Assembly: GCF_000027125.1 (NCBI RefSeq)
Contig: NC_017626.1
Direction: 5' to 3' (one strand)
Length of the DNA stretch: 64,000 nt
Source: Escherichia coli 042
GTDB lineage: Bacteria; Pseudomonadota; Gammaproteobacteria; Enterobacterales; Enterobacteriaceae
Shown here: piece after piece, positions 11,267 through 58,855 of the stretch
Position numbering within the stretch: the stretch's first letter is position 1
How the letters are laid out: each line of letters starts with the position of its first letter
The notes under the pieces: generated by a model
What the model saw: the letters and a program-made list of their open reading frames with translations, nothing else
Told to the model about the DNA's origin: nothing
The model's database searches: none
Made by a program: the position numbers and the translations under genes

Positions 11267-11986
11267 ATCGCTGCGACAGTGGCTGATGCTGTACTCAATA
11301 GGCCGTTGCTGTTGGTCAAGCGCCACTTGCTTGATCACCAGCACCGGTATTTTGCTATCTAACTGAATATGTGACTGAAACTCGGCATCCGGCATCCGGG
11401 CACTAACGCGGGAACGCGTACGTTGTGGGTAAATGTGCTGGCTGCGGAAGTAGTCATAAAGAGAAATCCCGATGGCATCAACATCATGAATTAAATGTGC
11501 CGGAACCCACGATTCCTCAATCGATACCGCTTCTTCATCGACATAGCGAATACGCTTAAGCAAAAAGACATCACTTCCCGCTTCGACCGCCAGCTGCTGC
11601 GCGACTTCTTCGGGACATTTCACGACACGCTTGTTAACCCATAGTGTATCGGGCTTTTTCCCGCGCAATACCACCTGCTGAGAAAAACCTCGCGCTTCTT
11701 TCAACGAGTATTCGAAGATGTTGTTGATCTGCGTGCCGTAACCACGCGAACGCGTCACCACGCCCTCTTCTTCCAGCGCCTGCATCGCCTTGCGCACCGT
11801 AATGCGCGAAACGCCGGTTAACTGACTTAAATCACGCTCACCGGGCAAAATATTGCCATGCTCCAGCACCCCGCTGCGCACGGCATTTTTTACCGTTTCG
11901 GCAAACTTAATATAAAGCGGCGTGTTATCCGCCGCTAAAATACGTTCGTTCAGTTGGGCAATCAGCTGGGTATGCGCTTGTTCCAT
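11240..11986 (-). CDS. yegW: GntR-family transcriptional regulator (HutC/UTRA type)
   Basis: 248-aa ORF with N-terminal GntR HTH; convergent with yegV, 27-nt overlap. Confidence 0.85.
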   Translation of the reverse strand: MEQAHTQLIAQLNERILAADNTPLYIKFAETVKNAVRSGVLEHGNILPGERDLSQLTGVSRITVRKAMQALEEEGVVTRSRGYGTQINNIFEYSLKEARGFSQQVVLRGKKPDTLWVNKRVVKCPEEVAQQLAVEAGSDVFLLKRIRYVDEEAVSIEESWVPAHLIHDVDAIGISLYDYFRSQHIYPQRTRSRVSARMPDAEFQSHIQLDSKIPVLVIKQVALDQQQRPIEYSISHCRSDLYVFVCEE

Positions 11987-12920: not shown

Positions 12921-13721
12921 TCACCACCAGGCGTGGAAGTGGTGAACCGGACCAATACCGTGACCAACTTCCAGCGTGTCGGCCTGGGCTAATGCCGATG
13001 AAAGCCAGCTTTTTGCCTCCTGTACGGTGTCAGCCCAGTTTGTATGGCGCGGGTGCAGTGCAGCCAACGCCGCAGAGAGCGTACAACCAGTGCCGTGAGT
13101 GTTTTTGGTCATAATGCGCTGTGCGGTAAACCGTTGTTCACCCTCGCGGGTAAACAGCCAGTCCGGGCTTTGCTCATCATCCAGATGACCACCTTTCATT
13201 AGCACTGCGCCACAGCCCATCGCCAACAGCGATCGCCCTTGTTCCAGCATTTCCTGTTCGGTGCGCGCGTGTGGCGCGTCGAGCAAGGCGGCTGCTTCGG
13301 GCAAGTTTGGCGTTATTAATGAAACCTGTGGCAATAATCGACTGCGTAGCGTGGCAACTGCCGAAGGTGAAAGCAGCGGGTCGCCGCTTTTTGCCAGCAT
13401 AACGGTGTCGAGTACCACGTTTTGGATCTGATAACGTTGCAGCCGTTCTGCCACCGCTTCAACAATATCGGTTTCCGCCAACATACCGATTTTAGTGGTA
13501 TCGATTCGCACATCGCTGAACACCGAATCGAGCTGGGCGGCGACAAAATCAGGCTCAATGCGATAAACCGACTGTACGCCACGGGTATTTTGCGCCACCA
13601 GCGCGGTGATTACCGAGCAACCATACGCACCTAGCGCCGAGAAGGTTTTAAGATCGGCCTGAATCCCCGCACCACCACTCGGATCAGTACCGGCAATCGT
13701 CAGAGCGTTAATTCGTTTCAT
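12921..13721 (-). CDS. thiD: Hydroxymethylpyrimidine/phosphomethylpyrimidine kinase
   Basis: 266-aa ORF; PfkB-like kinase directly downstream of thiM with 4-nt overlap. Confidence 0.92.
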
Positions 13722-14506
13722 GCCTGCACCTCCGGCGTCAATTGCCAGAGCGCATCAAGGAAATGTGGAACAAAACTGCCTGGCCCCTCGCTTCTGGCGA
13801 CTGCGCGTTCTCCGGCTTGTTTCATCCAGTGACAGGCAGATGCGACGTTTTCCAGCATATCGCCGGGTAACGCACAACAGGCAGCGACAACCGCCGATAA
13901 TGCACAGCCAGTTCCTACCACTTTGGTCATTAACGGATCGCCACCGTGAATGCCAATGATACGATGTCCATCGGTAACATAATCCACCTCGCCAGTGACC
14001 ACGACGATTGCGCCAGTTTCCCGTGCCAGTGTTTGTGCAGCGGGTATCGCATTAGCTGCGGCGTCAGTGGTATCCACTCCCCGTCCGCCATTAGCAATGC
14101 CAGCTAATGCCATGATTTCCGAAGCATTACCACGTATGGCTGTTGGCTTATGAGACAGAAGTTCCAGACAAAAACAGCGGCGATAGTCGAGTGCACCAAC
14201 CGCAACCGGATCAAGCGTCCAGGGTGTTTGAGAGCGTTTTGCTTGCTCAACGGCGGCACGCATCGCCTGTGCGCGTGGCTGCGTCAGTGTGCCAACGTTA
14301 ATCAGCAACGCACTGGCGATAGCCGCAAACTGACTGGCTTCTTCGGTTTCGATAACCATCGCTGGCGATGCACCGAGCGCCAGTAAGGTATTGGCAGTAA
14401 AAGTTTGCACCACATCATTGGTCATGCAATGCACAAGAGGGGAATGTTGGTGAAAAAGGTGTAACGCGTGCGCAGATTGCGCGGAACTCAGCAGGTCGAC
14501 TTGCAT
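13718..14506 (-). CDS. thiM: Hydroxyethylthiazole kinase
   Basis: 262-aa ORF preceded by a TPP riboswitch. Confidence 0.92.
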
Positions 14507-14509
14507 AGT

Positions 14510-14640
14510 TTGCTCCTGCCATAACGTGAAGAAGCAATGACCTGGTGGTCCGTGACTTCCCTACGCTGGCATTATCCAGATCAGGTGATACGGGTATTTC
14601 TCAGCCTTCACGCAGAAGGGCACCCCGAGTCGTTTGATTG
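14510..14640 (-). ncRNA. TPP (thiamine pyrophosphate) riboswitch, thiM leader
   Basis: Minus-strand sequence ...ACGACUCGGGGUGCCCUUCUGCGUGAAGGCUGAGAAAUACCCGUAUCACCUGAUCUGGAUAAUGCCAGCGUAGGGAAGU... contains the THI-box (CUGAGA) and matches the classic E. coli thiM aptamer as I recall it. Confidence 0.9.
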
Positions 14641-14728
14641 CGATGATAAATCGCAGAGGAGGATGGTAATGTCCAGCGCACCCGTTGTAAACGAGGAAAA
14701 ACGGCAGTTTTACAATCGCGTTAATAAA

Positions 14729-15001
14729 TTATTTGATATATGAATCCAGCACCTTCAGAACGACATCCAGATCTTCTTCACGTTTTAGCTCATCCCCCTG
14801 GTGAACGATGTGTTCCGTCAGATGACCTTTAATCACTTCCCGCATCAGACCGTTTACCGCGCCACGGATAGCAGCAATCTGTTGTAAAACTGCAGCGCAT
14901 TCGTGCGGCTCGTCGAGCATTTTCTTGAGCGCCACGACCTGGCCCTGAATCTTACTGGCACGCGCTTTCAGTTTCTGTTTATCACGGATGGTATGAGACA
15001 T
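14729..15001 (-). CDS. rcnR: Ni/Co-responsive transcriptional repressor RcnR (CsoR/RcnR family)
   Basis: 90-aa ORF starting [10 protein letters not shown] with conserved His/Cys ligands; divergent from rcnA. Confidence 0.92.
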
Positions 15002-15049
15002 GGCAACACCTGGTTAACAAGAATATGAAAAATCATAGCACTATTAATC

Positions 15050-15084
15050 TACTGGGGGGTAGTATCAGGTACTGGGGGGGAGTA
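15050..15084. promoter_or_regulatory. Two RcnR operator sites (TACT-Gn-N-AGTA) in the rcnR-rcnA divergent promoter region
   Basis: tactggggggtagta (15050-15064) and tactgggggggagta (15070-15084): inverted TACT/AGTA half-sites flanking G6 and G7 tracts. Confidence 0.85.
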
Positions 15085-15121
15085 GAATAAGATTGCCGAA
15101 TTAATACTAAGAATTATTATC

Positions 15122-15967
15122 ATGACCGAATTTACCACTCTTCTTCAGCAAGGAAACGCCTGGTTCTTCATCCCCAGCGCCATCTTACTTGGTGCGCTTC
15201 ATGGCCTGGAACCAGGGCACTCAAAAACGATGATGGCGGCGTTTATCATCGCCATCAAAGGCACCATTAAACAAGCGGTGATGCTCGGACTGGCAGCAAC
15301 TATTTCGCATACCGCAGTGGTCTGGTTAATTGCCTTTGGCGGGATGGTGATCAGCAAGCGCTTTACTGCTCAATCAGCAGAACCGTGGCTCCAGCTGATT
15401 TCCGCAGTGATCATTATTGGCACCGCGTTCTGGATGTTCTGGCGTACCTGGCGCGGCGAACGCAACTGGCTGGAGAATATGCACGAGTATGATTATGAGC
15501 ATCATCACCATCATCACGATCACGAACATCATCAAGACCACGAACATCACCACGACCATGGACATCATCACCATCACGAACATGGCGAGTATCAGGATGC
15601 CCATGCACGAGCCCATGCCAATGACATTAAACGACGCTTTGATGGTAGAGAGGTCACCAACTGGCAAATTTTGTTATTTGGCTTAACCGGTGGCCTTATC
15701 CCCTGCCCGGCAGCAATTACCGTGCTATTGATATGCATTCAGTTGAAAGCCCTGACACTGGGCGCAACACTGGTCGTCAGTTTCAGCATTGGCCTGGCGT
15801 TTACGCTTGTCACCGTAGGCGTTGGCGCAGCAATCAGCGTTCAGCAGGTCGCAAAACGCTGGAGCGGATTTAACACTCTCGCTAAACGCGCCCCCTATTT
15901 TTCCAGTCTGTTGATTGGCTTAGTCGGTGTGTATATGGGCGTACATGGCTTCATGGGCATAATGTGA
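15122..15967 (+). CDS. rcnA: Nickel/cobalt efflux protein RcnA with histidine-rich cytoplasmic loop
   Basis: 281-aa membrane ORF; central HEYDYEHHHHHHDHEHHQDHEHHHDHGHHHHHEH segment encoded by a codon repeat at about 15480-15600. Confidence 0.92.
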   Translation: MTEFTTLLQQGNAWFFIPSAILLGALHGLEPGHSKTMMAAFIIAIKGTIKQAVMLGLAATISHTAVVWLIAFGGMVISKRFTAQSAEPWLQLISAVIIIGTAFWMFWRTWRGERNWLENMHEYDYEHHHHHHDHEHHQDHEHHHDHGHHHHHEHGEYQDAHARAHANDIKRRFDGREVTNWQILLFGLTGGLIPCPAAITVLLICIQLKALTLGATLVVSFSIGLAFTLVTVGVGAAISVQQVAKRWSGFNTLAKRAPYFSSLLIGLVGVYMGVHGFMGIM

Positions 15968-57749: not shown

Positions 57750-58682
57750 TTAATCGTTCTGTGCCGTCTGCCCCGCCGCCGCCATTTGGGCGGCTTTTTG
57801 TTTTTTATAGCTCAACGCTGCTGCCGGAACAGGCATCACTTTACCGGTCTCAATCCAGGTACGCAGGCGGCTGGCATCGGCAAAATGGGTATATTTGCCA
57901 AACGCGTCCATCACTACCAGCGCCACCGGTTTATTATTGATAACCGTACGCATCACCAGACAATGGCCCGCCGCATTGGTAAAGCCGGTTTTGGTTAACT
58001 GAATATTCCAGTTATCGCGATACACCAGATGGTTAGTATTGCGGAACGGCAGCGTATACGTCGGGTTAGAGAAGGTTGCCATATCTTCCCGGGTGGTACT
58101 TAACTGCCCGATCAACGGATATTGTTTGCTGGCAATGAGCAGTTTGGTTAAGTCACGGGCGGTTGAAACGTTATGCACCGACAATCCGGTCGGTTCAACA
58201 AAGCGCGTGTTGTTCATTCCGAGCGATTTCGCTTTCGCATTCATCGCCTTAATAAAGGCTTTGTAACCACCGGGATAATGGTGCGCAAGGCTTGCCGCCG
58301 CGCGGTTTTCTGAAGACATCAGCGCCAGCAACAGCATATCTTTACGGCTGATTTCGCTATTCAGTCGTACGCGCGAATAGACCCCTTTCATCTCCGGCGT
58401 CTGGCTGATATCCACTTTTAGTTTTTCATCCAGCGGCAGTCGCGCATCCAGCACGACCATCGCGGTCATTAATTTGCTGATAGACGCAATCGGACGCACC
58501 AGATCCGGGTGGTTCGAATAGATCACTTTGTTGGTATTCAGATCAACAATCATCGCGCTACCGGAGGCAATTTCCGGCTGTGAAGCGGTGGTAGCGGCTG
58601 CCGTTTTCGCAACGGCCTGCGGTGCCAAAGGCACAGCCAGCATCAGGGCCAGGCTAAATAAAGAAACTCGAAATTTCGGCAT
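57750..58682 (-). CDS. pbpG: D-alanyl-D-alanine endopeptidase PBP7
   Basis: SxxK motif (SISK), signal peptide; start at MPKFRV. Confidence 0.9.
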
Positions 58683-58855
58683 GATGAGCATTCAGATAGT
58701 GGTTCACGCGCACGGGTTGCGCACCGCCGGAGTAAGGATTTACTGAGGCTAGCGACGCCATCATAACGAGCAAAAAGTGCGATCGTCAAAGGAGAATCGT
58801 GAGGAAATGCTGCATTGCTGACATTTACGCCAGCAATGCAACACAAAAGTACTTT

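Follow-up and report, generated by a model that had tools for sequence, protein, structure and literature searches.

The thiM TPP riboswitch of Escherichia coli 042 in its native, uninterrupted context, and its aptamer DNA as a candidate attachment site for integrative elements in other E. coli genomes

The stretch of DNA analyzed here, a segment of 64,000 nucleotides from contig NC_017626.1 of Escherichia coli 042 (hereafter, the window), carries a locus on its minus strand with the putative order rcnR, promoter, a leader of ~150 nt (measured from the inferred transcription start to thiM), and thiM-thiD (Table 1). The products of four of four genes at the locus (thiM, thiD, rcnR, and rcnA) score above their NCBIfam cut-offs. 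Both thiM and thiD are full length, with ThiM exceeding the equivalog cut-off of TIGR00694 (336.9 bits versus 256.4) and ThiD that of TIGR00097 (361.9 bits versus 204.95), and thiD overlaps the stop codon of thiM (ATGA). The first 25 kb of the window find their best match, at 99.3% identity, in E. coli strain MMC-J-0105. The region itself was matched in 5424 of 5426 complete E. coli genomes, and in the RefSeq annotations of the matching genomes a 'TPP riboswitch' occupies the corresponding place, with rcnR on one side and thiM on the other. RcnA (window 15122-15967, plus strand) comprises 281 aa as compared to 274 aa in the K-12-type genome, a difference in length that is assumed to be a polymorphism in a histidine-rich loop (HHHHHHDHEHHQDHEHHHDHGHHHHHEH).

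Table 1. Features of the thiM locus and other RNA loci in the window. Coordinates are window positions; nucleotide N in the 165-thiM numbering corresponds to window position 14642-N.
Feature	Position	Strand	Basis or remark
Promoter-like site, TTTACA-17 nt-TACCAT	14663..14691	-	Consensus scan, 9/12 matches
Small hairpin in the 5' leader ahead of the aptamer, UGCGAU-UUAUC-AUCGCA	14638..14655	-	Present in free and aptamer-enforced folds
TPP (THI-element) aptamer, P1-P5	14541..14637; helix-bounded core ~14632..14553	-	RF00059
THI-box CUGAGA (C38-A43 of 165-thiM), pyrimidine-sensor part of the TPP pocket	14599..14604	-	
Anti-Shine-Dalgarno (anti-SD), UUGCUUCUU	14528..14536	-	Constrained folding
Shine-Dalgarno (SD), AGGAG	14513..14517	-	
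thiM, hydroxyethylthiazole kinase, 262 aa; start codon 14506..14504	13718..14506	-	ORF and TIGR00694
thiD, HMP/HMP-P kinase, 266 aa	12921..13721	-	ORF and TIGR00097
C-rich, G-poor stretch in early thiM, ~+191..+225	14431..14465	-	25-nt scan
Candidate empty attachment site in aptamer DNA	14559..14601	.	Junction alignments
rcnR	15001..14729	-	Upstream of the thiM leader; rcnA divergent
zor-orz pair components	37338-37427, 37673-37746, 37946-38035, 38281-38356	-, +, -, +	

When the whole window was searched by cmscan with gathering thresholds applied, a single match to the TPP riboswitch family (RF00059) was returned, namely the aptamer in the thiM leader. This match scores 71.8 bits against a gathering threshold of 54.3, has an E-value of 3.6e-12 for the whole window searched against all 4227 Rfam families, and spans positions 1-105 of the 105 positions of the model, indicating a complete rather than a truncated element. 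The minus-strand sequence reads ...GACUCGGGGUGCCCUUCUGCGUGAAGGCUGAGAAAUACCCGUAUCACCUGAUCUGGAUAAUGCCAGCGUAGGGAAGUC..., and 34 nt separate the 3' end of the aptamer from the AUG of thiM, which follows it on the same strand. Helices P1, P2, P3, P4, and P5 are all able to form, and the variable and optional P3a is absent, as it is in the K-12-type sequence. Of the 23 base pairs of the model, 21 are canonical; the remaining two are C.A pairs, for which the K-12-type sequence has the same bases. The original prediction placed a TPP riboswitch upstream of thiM on the minus strand, with a legible CUGAGA THI-box, and named a sub-threshold Rfam score as the outcome that would speak against it. The score lies well above threshold, the THI-box was found on that strand, the downstream gene belongs to TIGR00694, and the interval of 14510-14640 given for the element takes in the aptamer and the expression platform down to the SD; strand and coordinates are thus as originally called.

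Two junctions form the ligand pocket of TPP riboswitches, with the CUGAGA junction serving as the pyrimidine sensor and the P4/P5 junction as the pyrophosphate sensor. In the window, the whole core of the aptamer is identical to that of the TPP-responsive E. coli sequence. In E. coli thiM, the reactivities of U39, G40, A41, A43, and G60 change with TPP (PMC1920254). Given the identity of the core to the RNA studied biochemically and structurally in that work, the window aptamer would be expected to bind TPP directly and selectively. It should be noted that the CUGAGA hexamer alone is not diagnostic of a TPP aptamer, and that the evidence is the score of the covariance model. CTGAGA or its complement TCTCAG occurs 5 times in the window as compared to 18.0 +/- 4.0 times in dinucleotide-preserving shuffles, and 100 of 100 shuffles contained at least 5 copies. 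The hexamer is therefore under-represented in the window, and it is uninformative on its own, with 5 occurrences against about 18 expected by chance.

The same scan recovered other RNA elements in the window. Tandem zor-orz type I toxin-antitoxin loci lie between yehK and yehL and comprise two OrzO-P antitoxin RNAs (91.7 and 101.3 bits) and two identical ZorO-like toxin ORFs of 29 aa (MDTLTQKLTVLIAVLELLVALLRLIDLLK), one per OrzO-P RNA. In the closest complete genome that was found, the gap between yehK and yehL is only ~300 nt, and the zor-orz locus therefore appears to be missing from that genome. Additionally, a Peptidase-S11 RNA (RF03039; 58687-58767, minus strand; 72.8 bits) overlaps the start of a minus-strand ORF of 313 aa (58691..57750) that corresponds to pbpG (D-alanyl-D-alanine endopeptidase) by its position in the closest annotated genome.

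The transcription start was estimated at approximately 14656 (+/-1) from the numbering of Bastet 2017 and from the distance to the -10 hexamer; a start at this position would be 7-8 nt past the -10-like hexamer. In the Bastet 2017 numbering, nt 174-271 correspond to codons 9-40 (PMC5499598), and the AUG consequently falls near +150. A total of 461 nt were aligned base by base to the K-12-type genome (L001), end to end and without indels. Between a point ~105 nt ahead of the inferred start and the end of the leader, only two differences were observed: 14682 (G/C), which lies in the spacer of the promoter-like site, and 14637 (T/C), which is the unpaired first position of the Rfam match and the sole difference from the K-12-type sequence between the inferred start and the AUG. 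No base changes are present in the aptamer core, anti-SD, SD, or AUG. The description of the element as apparently intact is borne out by this comparison, in that the promoter-like site, leader, aptamer, anti-SD, SD, and AUG follow one another without interruption and a single unpaired base separates the transcribed leader from its K-12-type counterpart.

The closest known system is the thiM riboswitch of E. coli K-12, which occupies the same locus (rcnR-thiM-thiD) and agrees with the window at every base of the aptamer core, anti-SD, SD, and start codon. The '165 thiM' RNA is reportedly that of Winkler, Nahvi, and Breaker in 2002. By a numbering derived from the positions given by Rentmeester et al. 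(PMC1920254), in which G40 falls in CUGAGA and the SD at nt 126-130, this K-12 construct corresponds to window positions 14641..14477, and crystal structures of the thiM aptamer are cited in PMC1920254. The window strain is not K-12, and it differs in the leader at 14637 and in the promoter spacer at 14682. Differences are more numerous in the coding sequence, where window thiM departs from the K-12-type gene at 38 nt and 9 aa; five of these substitutions fall at +168 to +260 in early thiM, among them a C-to-T change at +227, close to where termination has been mapped. Four of the nine ThiM differences cluster at residues 111-122 (C111H, L114H, H119F, and T122A; window residue, then K-12-type), which suggests a small patch of recombination. 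The thiC and tbpA (thiB) riboswitches of E. coli share the Rfam family and the ligand but are different loci, neither of which is in the window. These, too, couple translational control with effects at the mRNA level (PMC11487190); the Rho-binding site lies inside the riboswitch for thiC and in the coding region for thiM, where 20-34 codons are needed (PMC11487190; PMC5499598).

Folding of the leader points to a switch between two pairings of the anti-SD. In the free minimum free energy (MFE) structure, the anti-SD (14536..14528) pairs with GGGAAG-UCA of the 3' side of the aptamer; when the aptamer pairs from Rfam are enforced, it pairs instead with AGGAGCAA, which contains the SD (14517..14513). 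The partner of the anti-SD thus changes in silico from GGGAAGUCA to AGGAGCAA, and the probability that the SD is unpaired falls from 0.15-0.41 in the free ensemble to 0.00-0.03 with the aptamer enforced. Constrained folding puts the cost of enforcing the aptamer pairs at 9.0 kcal/mol, a cost judged to be of the order that TPP binding could supply. In published probing of the TPP-free RNA, nt 71-86 formed a helix with nt 108-125 and chemical modification reached the SD (nt 126-129), a state that is reversed by TPP (PMC1920254); the computed free-state helix agrees with these data. The unconstrained MFE was rejected as a test for the riboswitch in favor of the covariance model and constrained folding, as the unconstrained leader was no more stable than shuffled sequences (z = -0.48) and its MFE structure did not recover the aptamer; such a lack of signal is expected for a bistable switch.

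A second arm of regulation may act through Rho. In addition to translational repression, it has been reported that TPP lowers the level of thiM mRNA via Rho, which was found to terminate transcription at +231, +237, and +262, the rut site being placed near +200 (PMC5499598), and that Rho-dependent termination in thiM needs 20-34 codons (PMC5499598; summarized in PMC11487190 and PMC10450168). A scan with 25-nt windows identified a stretch at +191..+225 (14465..14431) with a C content of 36-40% and a G content of 4-8%. Based on the identity of position, this stretch probably corresponds to the published rut region.

Control by an intrinsic terminator is common across the TPP riboswitch family. 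A Rho-independent terminator and antiterminator, as in many Bacillus TPP riboswitches, might accordingly act on thiM in place of SD sequestration, and B. subtilis has been contrasted with E. coli in this respect (PMC11487190). However, a scan of 14400-15150 for GC-rich hairpins followed by a T-run returned 0 terminator-like sites, such that no hairpin and T-run lie between the aptamer and thiM. The alternative pairing of anti-SD and SD is present, moreover, and experiments on the same leader sequence support it (PMC5499598; PMC1920254). Assignment to the intrinsic-terminator type was rejected for want of a terminator hairpin and U-tract, and termination of this kind is considered exceedingly unlikely here. 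The chance that the aptamer merely resembles the TPP model by coincidence is smaller still, to the point of being negligible: the only point in its favor is that CTGAGA alone is a common hexamer, and against it stand the E-value obtained for the whole window against 4227 families, the location of the match at the correct place and on the same strand upstream of a thiamine gene, and the conservation of that position across E. coli genomes.

A further alternative is that the aptamer is present but the switch has been decoupled or has decayed, either through insertion of a mobile element that cuts the promoter or the link to thiM or through disabling mutations. That this can happen in the species is suggested by the 697 of the 5424 matching complete E. 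coli genomes (~13%) that lack a contiguous match from rcnR through the riboswitch to thiM, and by genomes with one such insertion (element A, below) in which the thiM-side remnant of the aptamer scores only 33-34 bits. In the window, however, the sequence is contiguous from rcnR to thiM, aligns to the K-12-type sequence without indels, and yields 71.8 bits, and every base of the aptamer core, anti-SD, SD, and AUG is unchanged. Decoupling or decay of the switch in E. coli 042 is therefore very unlikely.

The element in the window is best explained as the E. coli thiM TPP riboswitch in its native and uninterrupted context, acting by SD sequestration and Rho termination, a reading to which a probability of roughly 0.96 is assigned. 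It rests on the match to the aptamer model, the near-identity to the K-12-type sequence, the two alternative pairings in silico, the intact thiM and thiD genes, and the absence of a terminator-like site. At low TPP, the anti-SD (UUGCUUCUU) would be paired to the 3' part of the aptamer (GGGAAGUCA; P4'/P1'), leaving the SD and AUG free such that thiMD would be translated. When TPP is bound, the aptamer is predicted to close into P1-P5 around the ligand, which would be held by the CUGAGA and P4/P5 junctions; the released anti-SD would then pair with the SD (AGGAGCAA) and initiation of translation would be blocked. Untranslated early thiM mRNA would in turn expose the C-rich rut site, and Rho would be expected to terminate transcription within approximately the first 40 codons, thereby lowering thiMD mRNA as well. 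In this model, TPP binding, repression in vivo, and the involvement of Rho are carried over from published work on the same leader sequence and are to be read as expectations for E. coli 042. The riboswitch is ordinary and already known, in that it is the E. coli thiM riboswitch itself and not a mere relative, and nothing new was found at the riboswitch in the window.

In other E. coli genomes, the DNA that encodes the thiM aptamer harbors two types of insertion, and in the 697 genomes without a contiguous match the breakpoints fall inside or at the edge of the aptamer. The corresponding site in the window is empty and contiguous. Both types of element encode tyrosine integrases, which share no significant pairwise similarity (E = 0.24).

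The first type, element A, was seen in L009 (1-260 and 11000-11260), where ~10.5 kb separate two copies of the core, and in the O157 strain Al Ain (L002:2850-3122). It encodes a tyrosine integrase of 406 aa, a primase, a single-stranded DNA-binding protein (SSB), a major head protein, a head decoration protein, an AlpA-like excisionase, and a small terminase, a gene set that resembles that of phage satellites. The terminase region next to thiM in the Al Ain sequence returned only distant matches (~77% identity). The direct repeat of element A, AGAAATACCCGTAT, is identical to window positions 14601..14588, and the right end of the element was detected in 76 genomes at a query coverage of at least 80%. 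Element A splits the aptamer, and its insertion should leave thiMD without control by TPP.

The second type, element B, is exemplified by strain YSP8-1 (L005:110-340 and 11640-11870), in which ~11.5 kb lie between two copies of the aptamer. Its genes encode an integrase of 435 aa, an HNH endonuclease, an AIPR protein, a resolvase, a DUF6998 protein, and an HTH_73 protein; the integrase region had no megablast match in the phage collection. The repeat of element B runs through ...GCGTAGGG (to 14559). The element is flanked by two TPP aptamers that both pass the Rfam threshold, one of 60.2 bits before int and one of 73.6 bits before thiM. The former is a hybrid (L005:178-272) that lies 69 nt upstream of int on the same strand and behind the native thiM promoter. 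The latter (L005:11722-11818) is a full copy that takes its 5' half from the element, hereafter also island B, and it scores higher than the native aptamer in the window (71.8 bits). In the half supplied by island B, the distal part of P3 differs from the native sequence at 11 consecutive positions, yet an 18-nt hairpin (GCCCCAUCAAUGAUGGGC) can still form at -7.5 kcal/mol versus -5.8 kcal/mol for the native P3; further, at the base of P1, where the native aptamer has a C.A mismatch, the C has given way to a U, making a U-A pair possible. The island B aptamer is a natural, structure-preserving variant carried on a mobile element. A promoter scan of the YSP8-1 region found no same-strand sigma-70-like site upstream of the aptamer supplied by island B.

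The left junction of island B was found in 182 genomes. Its right end directly adjoins the aptamer in 468-515 genomes, O157:H7 EDL933 among them. In these 468-515 genomes, DNA derived from island B lies between rcnR and the aptamer and replaces the promoter region of the K-12 type. In strain 2009C-4687 (L004:840-3003), with which EDL933 shares the right end of island B, this DNA comprises genes for an outer membrane protein and a hypothetical protein and an HTH_73 gene, and the part of the insert covered by the analysis retains no integrase.

Taken together, the junction alignments make it reasonably probable that the aptamer DNA at ~14601..14559 doubles as an empty attachment site for at least two integrative elements, of which element A (~10.5 kb) splits the aptamer and element B (~11.5 kb) rebuilds a riboswitch that passes the Rfam threshold. 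Such use of the site would be the riboswitch counterpart of the targeting of tRNA genes. Integrative elements that target tRNA or tmRNA genes carry a copy of the part they displace and thereby reconstitute the gene, and element B likewise supplies the 5' half of the aptamer. In contrast to tRNA and tmRNA targeting, the target here is a cis-regulatory mRNA leader rather than a stable RNA gene, replacement is needed for the 5' part and the promoter, and element A restores nothing. The literature searched, which included few subscription journals, yielded no account of integration at thiM or at a TPP riboswitch, and novelty is not thereby proven.

For the window itself, the riboswitch provides a calibration point that supports the calls of strand and coordinates made for this region in the original prediction, which had valued this well-described element mainly as an internal check; it is indeed the textbook riboswitch. 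The feedback of TPP on the kinases that salvage thiazole and pyrimidine, through SD sequestration and Rho termination, is likewise textbook biology. The implications of the attachment site are broader. If confirmed, the site would indicate that riboswitch sequence can serve as an integration target at which elements either destroy or rebuild the regulator, and the regulation of thiMD may differ between lineages of E. coli, including O157:H7.
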